Shown: one piece after another, positions 1 to 41,352 of the stretch
Position numbering within the stretch: position 1 is the first letter of the stretch
Layout: each line of letters begins with the position of its first letter
Sequence record: MK373782.1
Length of the DNA: 64,000 nucleotides
DNA from: Escherichia phage vB_EcoM_KAW3E185
Strand: one strand, 5' to 3'
The notes under the pieces: generated by a model
The model's input: only the letters and a program-made list of their open reading frames with translations
Database searches by the model: none
Told to the model about the DNA's origin: nothing
Made by a program: the position numbers and the translations under genes

Positions 1-1563
1 GTCAAAACGATAATCAACATCTAATGGTTCGTCAACAGAAAGATTAGGATTATGCAATGCCTCTTTAATTATTTCACCATTACGTTGAGCTGCAAGCATA
101 TAACCTTTATGTTCTTTACGTTGATTAAAGACCTTAGTGATTTCAGTTGGAACTACACCATCACGGTCTTTATAATACATCATGCCGTTAGGAGAACAAC
201 TGTACACATCTGAAGGACGTTCAGCGATTGCGTTAATATAATCATGCAATGGAGCTACTTTAAACGTTCCTGCTATTGTTTCCGGGCTAATATTCACTTG
301 GCGAATAATACTTGGATACAGAGATGTAAGGTCGAAACTCATTACATATTTGTATCGATTTGGAATAGGTTCCTTAACAAAAGCGCCAGGATAAGGTTGA
401 ACCGGGTGAGAACGACCTTGTGGAATCACCTTGTTTTGTTCTTTAAGGCTATTAAAAATAATAGCATCCCAAGTTTTAATTGGACTGAACACAGATTGAA
501 TCTGAATTTTAGCATAATAACCCATGTCCAAACTCAAGTTGATGAACTGACGCTTAGCATCAATTTGCAATACACGATACACGTCGATAATGTTATAAGA
601 AATATATCGTTGGTGATTGCTTTCACGAAGCTTAGAAATAGGGCCGTCATATTTCAGTTTACCAACGTTCAATTCAAATTCTGAAATGTAATCCAGAGAA
701 TACGACGGTTGGTTCGTGAAAGAGAACTTTTTGTAAAGGTCAATGTAATCAAGAACAGAGATACCGAACAATGTAATGATTTCACGAGAACCATACATGT
801 TTTCGATAACTTTAACACGAGTTTTACGATGTGGTGATAAACGTTTCGCAGTAGATTCGCCAAAAATATTCTTGATTCGGTTATACACATATGGAATATC
901 AAATGACTCAACGTTCCATCCAGTCAAAATGACAGGAGTTTTCTGTTGCCAGAAGTTGAGATATTCCATCAACAATTCTTTTTCGTTATCGAACGGCATA
1001 TAAATGATTTTATCGATAATTTCGGATGGAACTTCATCACCACCTTGTTCTTGAAGCTTAGCCGCAATTTCGATAGACCATTCTTCTACATTACCATATG
1101 GAGAATTCAATAGATCAAATACGTAGAACCTGTCGTCAATTGAGTCATAATGGGTGATAGCATCAATCGGATGTTTTGCTTGTGACGGCTCAGGGAACCC
1201 ATCCGGAGATGTTACTTCGATGTCGAAGTTAGCCACACGAATTTTTGTATGGTCGTATTTGATTTCATAGTTATAAGTGTCAGACAAATACGCCAATTTG
1301 AAATCGTCCATGCCAAGTGCTTCAAGTCCGATATCTTCCATGCGTTTAATCCATTGGGAGGCATCACGCATATTAGCGAACAACTTACGAGTACACGGCT
1401 TACCGTAGATATCGAAATATTTCGTAGCCTGACTTTCTGGACAATGAGCAAACAGTGATGGTTTATATTCTACTTCACGAGTACGTTCACGGCCATTAGA
1501 ATCGATGTAACGTTCAAAAATTGAATCACCAATCTGTTCAACCGTTAAGTAAAATTCTTTCAT
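1..1563 (-). CDS. 43: DNA polymerase gp43, N-terminal 521 codons (gene runs off the window edge)
   Basis: ATG at 1563-1561; translation begins MKEFYLTVEQIGDSIFERYID, matching my recollection of T4 gp43 (MKEFYISIETVGNNIVERYID); in frame to position 1; lies downstream of regA as in T4. Confidence 0.9.
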   Translation of the reverse strand, partial: MKEFYLTVEQIGDSIFERYIDSNGRERTREVEYKPSLFAHCPESQATKYFDIYGKPCTRKLFANMRDASQWIKRMEDIGLEALGMDDFKLAYLSDTYNYEIKYDHTKIRVANFDIEVTSPDGFPEPSQAKHPIDAITHYDSIDDRFYVFDLLNSPYGNVEEWSIEIAAKLQEQGGDEVPSEIIDKIIYMPFDNEKELLMEYLNFWQQKTPVILTGWNVESFDIPYVYNRIKNIFGESTAKRLSPHRKTRVKVIENMYGSREIITLFGISVLDYIDLYKKFSFTNQPSYSLDYISEFELNVGKLKYDGPISKLRESNHQRYISYNIIDVYRVLQIDAKRQFINLSLDMGYYAKIQIQSVFSPIKTWDAIIFNSLKEQNKVIPQGRSHPVQPYPGAFVKEPIPNRYKYVMSFDLTSLYPSIIRQVNISPETIAGTFKVAPLHDYINAIAERPSDVYSCSPNGMMYYKDRDGVVPTEITKVFNQRKEHKGYMLAAQRNGEIIKEALHNPNLSVDEPLDVDYRFD

Positions 1564-1644
1564 TTAATTTCCTTTAGACGAGTTATTGTCTTTTGTTTGT
1601 TGATGAACTTATTATACTCCAAATGGGACCGAAGTCCCATTGCT

Positions 1645-2013
1645 TTAATTACCAATTGTATATTTTGCTTTCAAAGTCCAGTCATCTTTCTGTTTAAAAG
1701 AGATAACACGGAAGTTATTAGTCAGGCCAAACAGATCTTCACGAGCAGAGTCTTCAATAACAATCAATCCCCAGTCTTCAAGCAACTGGGCAATCGAATC
1801 ACGTCGCTGATAGTCTTCACCGTTAATATCAACCTGACGTCCATCCATACGCAACATTTCTTTAAAGTGGACGATGTAGTATTTACCTTGCTTTTGGAGG
1901 ATATGACAGGACTGATAAAGAACTTTATCCTTGTTATTAGCGATGCCCATACGGGTCAAAGTCTCTTTGACTTTCAGAAAATCTTCGGGGTTCTTCAATT
2001 TAATTTCAATCAT
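1645..2013 (-). CDS. regA: translational repressor RegA (122 aa)
   Basis: ORF 1645..2022; ATG at 2013 gives MIEIKLKNPEDFLKVKETLTRMGIANNKDKVLYQSCHILQ..., near-identical to recalled T4 RegA and of the same length. Confidence 0.9.
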   Translation of the reverse strand: MIEIKLKNPEDFLKVKETLTRMGIANNKDKVLYQSCHILQKQGKYYIVHFKEMLRMDGRQVDINGEDYQRRDSIAQLLEDWGLIVIEDSAREDLFGLTNNFRVISFKQKDDWTLKAKYTIGN

Positions 2014-13190: not shown

Positions 13191-13661
13191 TTAATCATGT
13201 TTCCACACCCCATCGGTATTTGACCAAAGTCGCTGATTATCTGATCCTCGCCACAGCTTTTTAGTCGGAAGATTTTTCTCATACTTCCCATCAATAATAA
13301 CATCAACATATTTAAGCATTTCTAGTTGTTTAATATCTTCAAACTTATATCCTGTCCACAACCAAATGCTTTTATTGGGATAAAGATTTTTTACTGTTTG
13401 AGCAATGCGATGAATAACATCTCGGTTATCAGGATAGAGAGGGTCTCCTCCGGTTATAGTTAATCCTTCTATATAATCATTATTCAAACATTCAATCAAT
13501 TGTTCTAGTGTCTCTCCAGTGAATGGAATACCATTTCTAGCATTCCATGTTGATTTATTATAACACCCTTCACATTTATGCAAACAACCTGTAACGAAAA
13601 GAACGACCCTGCATCCAGGGCCATTCACAAAGCAGCACGGGTATATTCTGTCATAATTCAT
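13191..13661 (-). CDS. nrdG: anaerobic ribonucleotide reductase activating protein NrdG (156 aa)
   Basis: Radical-SAM-type cysteine cluster CLHKCEGC; ATG at 13661 gives MNYDRIYPCCFVNGPGCRVV and the T4 NrdG length; start overlaps the upstream stop (ATGA). Confidence 0.9.
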   Translation of the reverse strand: MNYDRIYPCCFVNGPGCRVVLFVTGCLHKCEGCYNKSTWNARNGIPFTGETLEQLIECLNNDYIEGLTITGGDPLYPDNRDVIHRIAQTVKNLYPNKSIWLWTGYKFEDIKQLEMLKYVDVIIDGKYEKNLPTKKLWRGSDNQRLWSNTDGVWKHD

Positions 13662-14488
13662 AATAATATCCAATTTTTCCAAGCTTCATCAGTAGAATTA
13701 CAGCGTTTTAGTATAAGATGTCTAGAAACTTTTATGGCATTTGAGCACTTTTTAATTGAATCATACTTAATACCGTCAACTGAAACGGTTTTGCTAGTTG
13801 GAGAAATTTTTCCATACATTGGATTTTTTGAACCAACTTGAAGTCCTTTTAAAGCTTTTGAAAGCTTTTGTCTAGATTCCAATGACATGGGAGAATTCTT
13901 TTTACCTTCAATAATTCGCTTGCGATGAAGTTCGCGTTCTTCTTCACTCAAAGAATTGTAATATTTTTTAACACCGTTTGATATAGATAATTTATCTTTC
14001 TCAGACCGCTCTCCAGCTAATTTACTTCTAACATCTTTTCGCTTCATAGCTATGCTTACGGCTTTATTTAAATTTGCTTGATGCTCTGGCGTACGTTTAT
14101 ATTTCTTTAAAGCACGTGAAATAGCTATTTTAGTTTCTTCTGTTCTCTTTTTACCTTTATTTGCTAAACTATTTTTGCGGCGATGTTCAAGTGTCTGTTC
14201 ATAGGCAGTTCCACCTTTTCCACCAGGTTTAATATTATATGTATTTTCTTTTAGACAATACTCTTCGGTTACGAGTTCAGCTTCTTTATCATACATTTGC
14301 TTTTCATTATCAAAAACATATAAAATTTCTTTATAAAAATTTTTTCTACCATATTTTAATAAAGCAGCACGAATCAATGTTCCTGATCCCATATAACCGT
14401 CATTTATGTTATCGGTGCTATGCGCACCGATATATTCCTTTGAATTAATTATATTTGTTATTTTATAAATTATATAATACCTATGCAT
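13658..14488 (-). CDS. free-standing GIY-YIG homing endonuclease (276 aa)
   Basis: N-terminal motif YYIIYKITNIINSKEYIGAHS (GIY...YIG); basic C-terminal repeats typical of Seg/I-TevI DNA-binding regions. Confidence 0.8.
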   Translation of the reverse strand: MHRYYIIYKITNIINSKEYIGAHSTDNINDGYMGSGTLIRAALLKYGRKNFYKEILYVFDNEKQMYDKEAELVTEEYCLKENTYNIKPGGKGGTAYEQTLEHRRKNSLANKGKKRTEETKIAISRALKKYKRTPEHQANLNKAVSIAMKRKDVRSKLAGERSEKDKLSISNGVKKYYNSLSEEERELHRKRIIEGKKNSPMSLESRQKLSKALKGLQVGSKNPMYGKISPTSKTVSVDGIKYDSIKKCSNAIKVSRHLILKRCNSTDEAWKNWILL

Positions 14489-15760
14489 GTTTTACTCGTT
14501 TTACCATTTCTTTCATTTTACCTAAATTCCATGGGACAACGCTAGGAGTTCCAAGATATCCGCATGTTCTTCTTATGGTATTCATCTTTTTAGGATCAGT
14601 TTCTCCACAAATAGAACAAACAAATCCGTTTTCAGTAGGAGTCATTTCATGGGTACTTCCACATGTAAAACATTTATCCACTGGCATATTAACACCAAAA
14701 TAATCTAAATGTTGTGCAGCATAATCCCAGACGGCCTCAAGCCCCTTTAAATTGTTTTTCATATCTGGAAGTTCAACATAAGAAATGTGACCGCCTGTCG
14801 CAATGAAATGATATGGGGCTTCGCGAGAAATCTTTTCAAACGGAGTGATATTTTCTTCTACTGAAACATGGAAACTGTTAGTGTACCATCCTTTATCGGT
14901 AACATCTTTTACACTTCCATATTTTTCAGTATCAAGTTTACAGAAGCGATAGCAAAGGTTTTCAGCAGGAGTAGAATACAAGCTAAAAGCAAAACCGGTT
15001 CTTTCGGTCCACTGCTTAAGACGAGCATTCATTTTAGTTAAAATTTCTTGTCCAATATCACGACCGACAAGAATATTCAATTCGTGAATACCGATGTATC
15101 CTAGGGACACTGAACTTCTACCGTTTTTAAATAACTCAATTATATCATCATCAGGTTTAAGACGGACCCCAAATGCACCTTCTTGGTAAAGAATAGGAGC
15201 AACAGTAGCTTTAACTCCTTTTAAGGAACTAATTCTACACATCAAGGCTTCAAAGCACAGATCCATTCGTTCATTAAATAACTCAACAAATTTCTGTTCA
15301 TTGAACTGTGTTCCAATATAAGAATCTAACGCGATGCGAGGAAGATTCAGTGTTACAACGCCAAGATTATTACGTCCATCAAGAATTTCATTACCAGTCG
15401 AATCTTTCCATACACTCAAGAAACTACGGCAGCCCATTGGAGAAACAGGAACTGAAGAACCGGTAATAGCTTTATTATTCTTAACCGAAATAATGTCAGG
15501 ATACATTCTTTTGCTTGCACATTCTAACGCAAGTTGTTTAATATCATAGTTCGGATCATCTTTATAAAGATTAACACCTTCTTCAACAAACATAACAAGT
15601 TTAGGAAAAATAGGAGTTATTCCATCACGACCAAGACCTTTAATGCGGTTTTTAAGAATTGCCTTCTGAATCATTCGTTCAGTCCAGTCAGTTCCCGTAC
15701 CAAATGTAATTGTTACAAAAGGCGTTTGTCCGTTTGAACTAAAGAGAGTATTTACTTCAT
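14481..15760 (-). CDS. nrdD: anaerobic ribonucleotide reductase NrdD, exon 2
   Basis: Encodes EVNTLFSSNGQ... to the C-terminal glycyl-radical motif RRTCGYLG; joining to exon 1 at the inferred splice sites gives 605 codons, the T4 NrdD length. Confidence 0.85.
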
Positions 15761-16805
15761 CATTATATTCAGCATGAGTCGCAAATTCATGCTCGTTTAT
15801 ATGAAACAACAAAATTTGGATAGTCCATAGATATGCAACGTTCTTTTATAGTGCTAGGATGAAAATTTAGCGCTTTAGCTGCTTCTATATAAGACGTATA
15901 CTTAATACCGTCAACAACCACATATTCAGGAACTTTATGAATAGTAGTCTTAATACTCAAAACAAGAGGATGAGTTTCGACTTCACTTTCAGTGCAATTT
16001 AAATATTCCGCTGCTTTTTTAAAACTTCTAAAAGTTTTATTTTTAAGCTTTATCGATACTTGTTTTTTACTTTTTCGACTATTGATATTATTTTGCACAT
16101 GTTCCTTAGATCTTCCGTTTTTAGCATAATATTCAGCTACAGAAGATTTTATATTGTTTTTATGAGATTCGGATAACACTTTACCCTTATGAGCATCTCT
16201 TAATTTTTGAATATGTTCTTCAGTATCCGGATGCTTATAAAACTTTTTACCGCCTATGGATTTATTTAAACATTTTTTGCTATAAAAATATTTACGTATG
16301 ACCTCTTCTTCATGTTTTAATGCATCTTTATAACTATCAAATGTTTTTAAAATTATCCATTTAGTAGGTGTATCAGTTTTTAAGCGTTCATTTATATACT
16401 TAGATGACGTTGTGTAAGTTTTCCAGTTTGTGGGCTTATTTTTAATTGTTCTAAATTTTTTATAACCGATATAAATGTCGCCATTAGAAAACTTAACTAA
16501 GTATGTAAATGCGTCTTTATCTTTTATTTTAGTACAACGTCTTTTTATCCATTTCATTGTTTCACCTCGTATTCATAAGATAATCTTATTTATACAAGAT
16601 GACTGCTGCATGTCGCCATGCAGATTAGACTATATCTTCATCTTTCGATGCCGGCCGTTTCGAATAGCATTAGCTTCTATTCTACACCGCTACATTCATC
16701 ACGGTTAGTCGTTAGGCATTTAGTTCAAAAGAACATTTAGCACGGGATTGTCTACTAGAGAGGTTCCCCGTTTAGACCGGTTTTACATGAGCCTGAATTA
16801 AATTA
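15761..16805 (-). mobile_element. group I self-splicing intron in nrdD (1045 bp)
   Basis: Minus-strand core CTAAACGGGGAACCTCTCTAGTAGACAATCCCGTGCTAAAT at 16735..16775, which I recall from T4 group I introns; 5' exon ends in U, intron ends in G; in-frame stop follows exon 1. Confidence 0.8.
15787..16557 (-). CDS. intron-encoded homing-endonuclease-like protein (256 aa)
   Basis: ATG start inside the intron's 3' extension; degenerate GIY-YIG-like N-terminus (FTYLVKFSNGDIYIGYKKF); Lys-rich with a helix-turn-helix-like C-terminus; no HNH cysteine pairs. Confidence 0.65.
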   Translation of the reverse strand: MKWIKRRCTKIKDKDAFTYLVKFSNGDIYIGYKKFRTIKNKPTNWKTYTTSSKYINERLKTDTPTKWIILKTFDSYKDALKHEEEVIRKYFYSKKCLNKSIGGKKFYKHPDTEEHIQKLRDAHKGKVLSESHKNNIKSSVAEYYAKNGRSKEHVQNNINSRKSKKQVSIKLKNKTFRSFKKAAEYLNCTESEVETHPLVLSIKTTIHKVPEYVVVDGIKYTSYIEAAKALNFHPSTIKERCISMDYPNFVVSYKRA

Positions 16806-17343
16806 ACTCATACGCCTGGAATGCGTCATAGACATCTTTTTCTGTTTTAGATTGAGCATAATTCAACGCATCAGCGATTTGCCATTTTTCTGCATCCTCA
16901 ATATGTTTTGCATAGGTGCGTTTAACATAAGGAGAAAGTACTTTATCTACATTAGCAAAAGTCGTTCCGCCGTATTGATGGGAAGCAACTTGTGCAGTAA
17001 TTTGTGCCATAATTGCAGTAGCAACACCAATAGATTTAGGCGTTTCAATTTGAGCATTGCCTAATTTAAATCCATTCTCAAGCATCCCCTTTAAATCGAC
17101 TAAACAGCAATTGGTAAACGGAAGAGCAGGAGAATAATCAATATCATGCATGTGAATGATTCCGCGTTCATGCGCATTCATAATAAAAGACGGGACCATA
17201 TTTTTGGCAATGTGTTTAGACACAATACCAGCCATAAGGTCCCGTTGAGTTGGAAAAACACGAGAATCTTTATTAGCATTCTCGTTCAAAAGATCTTTAT
17301 TAGTTTTATAAATTAATCCTTCAATTTCTTTTTCAATTTTCAT
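16806..17343 (-). CDS. nrdD: anaerobic ribonucleotide reductase NrdD, exon 1
   Basis: MKIEKEIEGLIYKTNKDLLNENANKDSRVFPTQRDLMAGIV... matches the recalled T4 NrdD N-terminus up to ...DAFQAYE. Confidence 0.85.
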
Positions 17344-17813
17344 TTTAAACTCTTTCTAAGCTGCTTTTTGAATGAAGCTATTAATTGTGTTTTAGTATCG
17401 GATTCATTATATTCAAATCCTCTTTGAAGCATCTCGGACATCATTTCCTCTTTACCTAGTCTTGAGAACTCTTTAGTTTTGTCTGGAACAAAATTAGGAT
17501 GGATATTATTATCAGAATAATCTTGTTTCAAATAAGCAAGAAGAGATTCAAGCCATTCGAGGTAATCAACGTTTTGACCTTTAAGACCAGAACGGTTGAA
17601 CTTATGCTTCATTTGACCTTCTGCTGTGTTGCACAGATTACAGAGTAACCCACGAACTCTACCGGCTTTTGGCCCGTTTAATTCGTGGTCGTGGTCAAGA
17701 TGGTTACCTTGAACATCAGGGTCTAATTCACGGTGGCAAATAGGACACTTACCGTTCTGTGCATCATAAAATTTTTGTTTTTCTTCTTTATATTTTGCGC
17801 CTGATAATAACAT
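17340..17813 (-). CDS. 49: endonuclease VII, Holliday-junction resolvase gp49 (157 aa)
   Basis: Zinc and catalytic motifs CPIC...HLDHDH...CNLCN; length matches T4 gp49. Confidence 0.9.
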   Translation of the reverse strand: MLLSGAKYKEEKQKFYDAQNGKCPICHRELDPDVQGNHLDHDHELNGPKAGRVRGLLCNLCNTAEGQMKHKFNRSGLKGQNVDYLEWLESLLAYLKQDYSDNNIHPNFVPDKTKEFSRLGKEEMMSEMLQRGFEYNESDTKTQLIASFKKQLRKSLK

Positions 17814-41195: not shown

Positions 41196-41272
<77 letters not shown>

Positions 41273-41275
41273 GAT

Positions 41276-41352
41276 TGGTGACCCAGACCAGATTCGAACT
41301 GGTAACCTTTCCCTTATGAGGGGACTGCTGCTAACCGTTGAGCTACAGGGCC
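41276..41352 (-). tRNA. tRNA-Ile (anticodon CAU, Ile2-type)
   Basis: Minus-strand GGCCCTGTAGCTCAACGGTTAGCAGCAGTCCCCTCATAAGGG...TTCGAATC...CACCA; anticodon loop CUCAUAA; called Ile rather than Met from the T4 tRNA set. Confidence 0.75.

Follow-up and report, generated by a model that had tools for sequence, protein, structure and literature searches.

The split nrdD gene and its ribozyme

The nrdD gene of Escherichia phage vB_EcoM_KAW3E185 (sequence record MK373782.1) lies in two parts, with an open reading frame (ORF) for 256 amino acids (aa) between them. What divides the gene, and is it the element that is known from the nrdD gene of T4? A first-pass annotation of the window, by which we mean the whole stretch of 64,000 nucleotides (nt) that was analyzed, had proposed a 1045-nt group I intron within nrdD, with a full-length endonuclease-like ORF of its own. 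We conclude that the element is very probably a mobile, self-splicing group I intron and a distinct, old allele at the T4 sunY/nrdD site. The coordinates originally given for the gene all hold on the minus strand, and its parts are as follows.

16806..17343, minus strand: nrdD exon 1, of 179 codons and one further nt, a U; matches Pfam NRDD positions 1-141 (E = 2.9e-40)
16805..15761, minus strand: group I intron of 1045 nt, interrupting the Tyr codon of AYE-Y-EVN between its first and second bases
14481..15760, minus strand: nrdD exon 2, 2 nt plus 425 codons and the stop codon, including the glycyl-radical domain

Exon 2 matched NRDD profile positions 145-562 (E = 4.9e-123) and Gly_radical (E = 5.7e-25), and since the match of exon 1 covers positions 1-141, the two parts are adjoining portions of a single protein and not separate nrdD genes. 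Reading along the minus strand, gene 49 (endonuclease VII, 17813..17340, minus strand, matching Pfam Endonuclease_7 and its dimerization domain) is followed by an NRDD ORF (17343..16798), the 256-aa ORF (16557..15787), and a second NRDD ORF (15812..14481). Exon 1 ends with ...GCG TAT GAG T (also written ...GCGTATGAGT) at 16806, which places U at position -1; the intron begins with TAATTTAATTC and ends with ...AATATAATG, its terminal G being at 15761; and exon 2 begins with AT GAA GTA AAT (also written ATGAAGTAAAT) at 15760. Both splice-site bases are thus those that had been proposed. Joining the exons at the predicted ligated junction, ...GCGUAUGAGU|AUGAAGUAAAU (in RNA, ...UAUGAGU|AUGAAGU), yields 1818 nt in a continuous frame of 605 codons reading ...DAFQAYE-Y-EVNTLFSS..., again as had been claimed.

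Intronless alleles of the gene are common. A 400-nt query spanning the spliced junction matched 620 phage records in one uninterrupted piece, and the nrdD gene of NicPhage was 99.0% identical over 400 nt across the junction, also in a single piece. Five intronless phages (NicPhage, RB69, RB14, ATK47, and T6) read ...TATGAAT|A(T/C)GAAGTAAAT with nothing inserted, and splicing here would restore exactly the sequence of the intronless alleles.

The covariance-model search that had been suggested for the intervening sequence found a group I core. Rfam RF00028 (Intron_gpI) matched at 16837..16606 over the full model (1-253), with a score of 71.6 bits (gathering score, 50; E = 6e-18). This match was recovered when a 1.2-kb region was rescanned alone; a scan of the whole 64-kb window at the gathering threshold with default filters had missed the intron and reported only two tRNAs. 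We attribute the miss to the speed filters, to which ORF-containing introns can be lost in window-scale scans, a caution for automated scans generally. The core and its helices are listed below.

16606..16811, minus strand: ribozyme core P1-P9, from the Rfam match and helix complementarity
16811..16806/16792..16787, minus strand: P1, AUGAGU/GCUCAU, with U(16806).G(16792) at the splice site
16780..16775/16656..16651, minus strand: P3, CCGGUC/GGCCGG
16771..16766/16747..16742, minus strand: P4, ACGGGG/UCCCGU
within the core, minus strand: P5 (short) and P6/P6a (present), complementary
16710..16706/16632..16628, minus strand: P7, GACUA/UAGUC
16705..16702/16689..16686, minus strand: P7.1, ACCG/CGGU
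16682..16677/16667..16662, minus strand: P7.2, GAAUAG/CUAUUC
16650..16647/16642..16639, minus strand: P8, CAUC/GAUG, with a GAAA loop
16623..16617/16612..16606, minus strand: P9, CUGCAUG/CAUGCAG
15771..15793, minus strand: terminal hairpin, P9.2-like, AGCAUGA/UCAUGCU, within the last 35 nt of the intron

All of the core helices are fully complementary, including the P3/P7 pseudoknot. P3, P4, P6a, P7.1, P7.2, and P8 have other sequences, with pairing kept, in the T4 nrdD intron, in td introns, and in the nrdD intron of VB-EcoM-WM (a 139-kb, rV5-like phage); as this comparison covers four to five sequences, it is a demonstration of compensation and not a statistical test. MAFFT misplaced P7.1 and P7.2 between alleles, and the helices were therefore compared sequence by sequence. 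The extra P7.1 and P7.2 hairpins between the 5' strand of P7 and the 3' strand of P3 are those of the T4-phage intron type, which we take to be subgroup IA2. The core had been placed in the 5' quarter of the intron and the ORF in a 3' extension; in fact the core makes up the first 200 nt (the 5' fifth), and the ORF lies 3' of P9, between it and the terminal hairpin. The 5' arm of that hairpin ends with the UGA stop codon of the ORF, and the hairpin is followed by GAAUAUAAUG and then by the end of the intron at the terminal G (15761). Its counterpart in T4 (GUAGAG.../CUCUAC) has fully compensated pairs.

Might the locus instead be a gene in pieces, in which a free-standing endonuclease cassette separates two NrdD fragments that are assembled as proteins, with no splicing of RNA? 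The nrdA gene of phage Aeh1, which is split by mobE, is a precedent, and most GenBank records of the locus do annotate two NrdD coding sequences (CDSs) and a homing endonuclease. Exon 2, however, has neither a start codon nor a ribosome-binding site (RBS) of its own at the junction, and the TTG start listed for its ORF falls within the 3' end of the endonuclease ORF. Moreover, the boundary of exon 1 carries a full-length group I match, with a U.G pair in P1 at the junction, a terminal G, the P7 pseudoknot, and compensated helices, and joining the exons produces exactly the intronless sequence. We therefore rejected translation in pieces, which we regard as so improbable as to be nearly negligible.

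A predicted homing endonuclease and its upstream region

The ORF within the intron proved to be intact, with the coordinates originally assigned to it, and its stop codon is 26 nt short of the 3' splice site.

15787..16557, minus strand: predicted GIY-YIG homing-endonuclease ORF, 256 aa, of a sister lineage of I-TevII

A scan of the ORF against Pfam gave a borderline match to SegE_GIY-YIG (PF19835; 26.6 bits against a cutoff of 25, residues 9-86), a family that was matched by 28 of 40 relatives of the ORF (best E, 3e-16), and a match above cutoff to NUMOD1 at residues 171-193, with no match to an HNH family at E <= 0.1. Similarity to I-HmuI is limited to the NUMOD-like DNA-binding module of that enzyme, and on both grounds we rejected identification as an HNH enzyme. 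The profile searches proposed at the outset were thus positive for GIY-YIG and NUMOD and negative for HNH, in keeping with the degenerate GIY-YIG-like N-terminus without HNH cysteines that had been described. PHROGs assigned the ORF to phrog_314, "homing endonuclease." A word-indexed search of 5.8 billion proteins returned just two clusters at 90% identity, one containing this ORF (64 members) and the other I-TevII (38 members), and an exhaustive profile search found 944 relatives at E <= 1e-3, only three of them at E <= 1e-30.

In an alignment of 40 sequences, Y19, Y29, G31, E83, and N98 are invariant, the tyrosines and glycine lying in the motifs FTY19 and IY29-I-G31. Residues E75 and N90 of I-TevI have a catalytic role, and the 15-residue spacing between E83 and N98 is the same as theirs. 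Profile-profile comparison (HHalign) of the whole protein with I-TevI gave a probability of 95% (E = 3e-8), in an uncertain local register that placed E83 and N98 on neighboring Glu and Asn residues of I-TevI. We infer that E83 and N98 are the probable equivalents of E75 and N90. AlphaFold, when supplied with the 40-sequence alignment, predicted with confidence a structure (pLDDT 90.8) having the alpha/beta fold of a GIY-YIG domain; an alignment of three sequences had given an unusable model (pLDDT 60). A phmmer search of the ORF against the sequences of the PDB found nothing, and the 40-sequence profile matched only the DNA-binding domain of I-TevI in the same database. Taken from its sequence, the product is predicted to be a GIY-YIG enzyme, a homing endonuclease not of the HNH type, and to have the same modular design as I-TevI and I-TevII, in which a NUMOD linker joins a catalytic domain to a C-terminal helix-turn-helix.

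Three candidate regulatory features precede or overlap the start of the ORF.

16562..16602, minus strand: hairpin over the Shine-Dalgarno sequence (GAGGUGA) of the ORF, with arms at 16602..16592 (5') and 16572..16562 (3')
16587..16594, minus strand: match to the consensus of T4 late promoters (TATAAATA), within the RBS hairpin, in its 5' arm and loop
16561..16579, minus strand: candidate operator that overlaps the RBS and is a near copy of the homing site of intronless nrdD, CTTATGAAT|ACGAGGTGAA

The minimum free energy of the hairpin is -17.3 kcal/mol (z = -5.7), and none of 200 shuffled sequences was as stable; the values for its T4 counterpart are -15.5 and z = -5.5. The late-promoter motif occurs at the same relative position in the T4 intron, and a scan for sigma-70 promoters was uninformative, the phage being of the T4 type. 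The operator-like sequence (16579..16561, CTTATGAATACGAGGTGAA) has 17 of its 19 bases in common with the intronless junction CTTATGAAT|ACGAAGTAAA and is the only such match in the window, where 0.07 would be expected. In the scheme described for T4, transcripts that read through from nrdD are translationally silent and late transcripts are without the inhibitory arm (PMC2988022). Intron endonucleases, including I-TevII, have also been proposed to bind an operator that resembles the homing site (PMC2988022). We infer from this anatomy that the hairpin, late promoter, and operator of the present intron probably have corresponding regulatory roles.

Age, distribution, and composition of the allele

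Is this simply the T4 intron? The T4 record gives nrdD as a two-part join with a 1033-nt intron and an I-TevII CDS of 258 aa. The first-pass annotation had described the T4 copy of the ORF as truncated, which is not the case: I-TevII is listed as an active GIY-YIG enzyme (PMC2988022, Table 1), and the enzyme that is inactive in T4 owing to a large deletion is I-TevIII of the nrdB intron (PMC2988022). One paper does call the gene in the nrdD intron "truncated" (PMC3653736), and this wording may be the source of that description. The suggestion that the ORF is different from that of T4 nonetheless stands, on grounds that the annotation did not have. The ORF product is identical to I-TevII at 144 of 257 residues (56%; E = 1e-101), with two gaps and colinear over its full length. 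In a gene-long alignment to T4, the exons had 86-100 identities per 100 columns and the intron had 55-79, corresponding overall to nucleotide identities of about 95% and about 65%. Synonymous divergence (dS) from T4 is 1.5 in the ORF, compared with 0.34 in the exons of nrdD, which means that the intron alleles are much older than the divergence of the present host genes. The ratio of nonsynonymous to synonymous divergence (dN/dS) between the ORF and I-TevII is 0.25 and is uniform over the N-terminal, linker, and C-terminal thirds, which shows that both ORFs have been under purifying selection.

The alternative of trivial strain variation in the T4 allele with I-TevII draws on the shared gene, site, and ORF position, on the near-equal lengths of introns (1045 and 1033 nt) and proteins (256 and 258 aa), and on the label "intron-associated endonuclease 2" that the ORF carries in some GenBank records. 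The alignments just described rejected it, and so little of the core is held in common that the longest exact run there is 14 nt. Databases, too, contain two discrete classes (about 45 records at 95% identity or more and 25 at about 65%) with no intermediates, and we consider it most improbable that the two are one allele.

These counts come from a search of the phage collection with the ORF region, in which 44 records matched at 99% or more, one at 95-99%, and 25 at about 65% (the T4 allele), with none between. The T4 allele is carried by T4 isolates, RB55, RB59, PST, and others, and the allele described here by Tequatrovirus isolates whose hosts are Escherichia, Shigella, Salmonella, and Proteus. 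Its ORF is variously annotated as "homing endonuclease," "intron-associated endonuclease 2," or "hypothetical protein," and nrdD usually as two separate genes. The element is thus already present in about 45 public genomes, as an inconsistently annotated and uncharacterized member of a well-known kind of intron. A literature search that did not cover the 2004 survey of introns in T-even-like phages by Sandegren and Sjoberg found no paper describing the allele, and no partial record from Sandegren and Sjoberg 2004 is among its listed carriers.

Signatures of mobility were seen. About 44 phages with differing exon flanks carry the allele at 99% identity or more, and this near-identity suggests recent spread. 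In addition, the exon position at -2 (16807 in the window) is G (GAG-T) in all five of the intron-plus alleles examined, of both types, and A (GAA-T) in all five of the intronless ones. In P1 this G is paired with the guide, and the pattern fits co-conversion or selection for P1 pairing. Two carriers, 215Ecol030PP and BYEP01, have independent internal deletions that remove most of the ORF and leave the core, 40-70 nt at the start of the ORF, and 70-190 nt at the end of the intron, with the terminal hairpin kept in both; in a few other copies a 1-nt change in length has led to annotation as two ORFs. Deleted and frameshifted copies of this kind are to be expected in the life cycle of homing-endonuclease genes.

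The insertion site has a wider history. The closest of the distant relatives of the ORF, P0003 and P0004 (37% and 36% identical), come from short metagenome contigs, in which each is directly preceded by a fragment that matches NRDD and by a group I core (Rfam scores, 65.9 and 81.5 bits). They have the same insertion site (...LE-Y-E(V/I)NTL), and their P1 guide co-varies with the exon (CUUGAGU/GCUCAAG). This identity of site and layout indicates that occupation of the nrdD site by an intron with an I-TevII-type gene after the core is old and recurrent.

Several points weigh against viewing the element as a self-splicing intron made mobile by a working enzyme. The score for the GIY-YIG-type Pfam family barely exceeds the cutoff, and Foldseek found no significant match in the PDB for the full-length model. 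Arg27 of I-TevI is the conserved arginine of GIY-YIG nucleases; no invariant arginine equivalent to it emerged from the 40-sequence alignment and the comparison with I-TevI, in which the basic residues nearest to its position are K33, K34, R36, and K46. The late-promoter motif is not enriched in the window (6 occurrences against 8.35 expected), and some sister copies are frameshifted or deleted, so that the lineage is not universally maintained. Finally, splicing, cleavage, homing, and regulation are deduced from anatomy and homology, and because nrdD is dispensable under aerobic conditions, viability of the phage does not prove splicing.

Some of these points would also suit an intron that splices but whose ORF specifies a decaying, inactive endonuclease and confers no mobility, like I-TevIII in T4 nrdB: the two large, in-frame-independent deletions and the 1-nt indels in other copies, and the want of a clear counterpart to Arg27. 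Decay is hard to reconcile with the copy in the window, which is intact at 256 aa and has every residue that is invariant in the 40 relatives, or with a confidently predicted fold and a dN/dS of 0.25 over all three domains. The RBS hairpin, late-promoter motif, and operator-like site have likewise all been kept, and the near-identity of the allele among phages with differing flanks suggests recent spread. We judge it unlikely that the enzyme is inactive and retain the view that the intron is mobile.

As a mobile, self-splicing intron, the element might work as follows. Exon sequence AUGAGU would pair with the intron guide GCUCAU to form P1, with the U.G pair at the splice site, and the P3-P9 core, with the guanosine site in P7, would catalyze the step in which a free guanosine attacks at 16806|16805. 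Next, the terminal G at 15761 would be brought into place by the terminal hairpin together with a short P10 (intron UUCA, 16797..16794, with exon 2 UGAA, 15759..15756), and ligation of the exons would give the 605-codon NrdD message. The 256-aa ORF would encode a GIY-YIG homing endonuclease of the I-TevII lineage, whose RBS would be locked in the hairpin on nrdD pre-mRNA; late transcripts begun just past TATAAATA would be free of the 5' arm and hence open to translation. The enzyme would bind the uninterrupted nrdD junction of a co-infecting intronless phage and make a double-strand break, and repair from the intron-plus allele would copy the intron together with a few flanking exon bases, such as the G at -2. 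Autorepression might act through the operator-like sequence at the RBS, with its 17/19 match to the homing site.

The ribozyme core itself appears to be a mosaic. Its first part (intron nt 1-30, the P1 region) is closest to the T4 nrdD allele (23 of 30 positions), and it is followed by two overlapping blocks with exact matches elsewhere.

16706..16776, minus strand: 71-nt block, intron nt 30-100, with the P3 3' end, P4, P5, P6, P6a, and the P7 5' strand
16682..16721, minus strand: 40-nt block, intron nt 85-124, with J6/7, the P7 5' strand, and P7.1

The first block (16776..16706) agrees at 71 of 71 positions with a td intron of 254 nt that contains no ORF, that of phage HMD-9. The td intron of T4, T6, and RB59 likewise has the first 42 nt of the block (16776..16735) without a difference, and the block matches the T4 nrdD intron at only 51 of 70 positions. 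The 41-nt core motif singled out by the first-pass annotation is real and lies inside this 42-nt stretch. The second block (16721..16682) is identical at 40 of 40 positions to the nrdD intron of VB-EcoM-WM. These matches indicate that segments of the core have probably been exchanged, in one direction or the other, between introns, including the td and nrdD introns of T-even-type phages; metagenomic nrdD introns have both P4 variants. Shuffling of intron domains was reportedly seen in laboratory crosses by Bryk and Belfort in 1990. The td intron of HMD-9 is at about 1462..1715 of the td segment, with the P6a hairpin GUUCuuuuGAAC within the 71 identical nt, and in the HMD-9 record td appears as a pair of thymidylate synthase genes.

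A bolder proposal, which we offer tentatively and would sooner bet against than for, is that the intron is a natural chimera, with a P3-P7 block exchanged with a td intron some 100 kb away and a P7.1 block common to an unrelated phage family, and that its endonuclease has shifted in recognition or cleavage on the same site, so that two old, non-interchangeable alleles compete for one nrdD site. If true, the two would be a natural pair in which to study co-evolution of GIY-YIG specificity and ribozyme modules.

Neighboring genes and comparison with known introns

Downstream of nrdD lies an ORF for a 276-aa GIY-YIG/NUMOD3 protein (13658..14488, minus strand) that overlaps the nrdD stop codon by 8 nt. 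It is segH, with 99.2% nucleotide identity to segH of LZ2 and PP01 and 98.2% to that of T6, and it fills the slot occupied in T4 by the HNH gene mobC. The last 70 nt or so of nrdD (14481..14550, minus strand), past the RRTCGYLG glycyl-radical motif, are 41% identical to T4, and the remainder of exon 2 is 90-97% identical. The divergent tail abuts segH, and this suggests that a single replacement brought in both the tail and the segH/mobC cassette. Elsewhere, the only two tRNA genes in the window are those for Arg-TCT and Met-CAT (41196..41352, minus strand); T4 has a cluster of eight tRNA genes in the corresponding region.

The T4 nrdD intron and I-TevII are a textbook case of intron homing, and I-TevII has been treated as a one-off. 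The allele described here adds a second intact and selectively maintained lineage at the same site, one that is commoner among sequenced isolates (about 45 records against about 25) and that offers a comparison for target recognition by a poorly characterized GIY-YIG enzyme. The exact blocks held in common with the td and rV5-like nrdD introns would be natural evidence for domain shuffling between phage introns. At a practical level, recognizing the intron corrects the gene model in records with two nrdD genes and a "hypothetical protein."

Compared with the T4 nrdD intron, the element has the same host gene, insertion point (AYE-Y-EVN), and P1 guide (GCUCAU), an entire core that precedes the ORF, an ORF that ends inside the terminal hairpin and is colinear with I-TevII, and an RBS-sequestering hairpin containing TATAAATA. 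It differs in the sequences of P3, P4, P6a, P7.1, P7.2, P8, and the terminal hairpin, in a P8 that is cut to 4 bp with a GAAA loop, and in a 9-nt insertion between TATAAATA and the RBS; it is 12 nt longer (1045 against 1033 nt), and its ORF has 256 rather than 258 aa.

The T4-type td intron is of the same group I type and is identical over 42-71 nt of the P3-P7 region, but it resides in a different host gene, has a different P1/P2 and 3' region, and carries its ORF, when one is present, in the loop of P6a and not downstream of P9. The nrdD intron of VB-EcoM-WM is inserted at the same codon position of a far more divergent nrdD gene and has a core that is similar overall, whereas its 762 nt (906..1667 of the segment) include an HNH ORF in the P6 loop and no GIY-YIG ORF after P9. 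The metagenomic introns of P0003 and P0004, known from short contigs alone, have far more divergent ORFs and exons. For the predicted enzyme, I-TevI is the closest solved relative of both the catalytic and the DNA-binding domains, with similarity at the level of profiles only.

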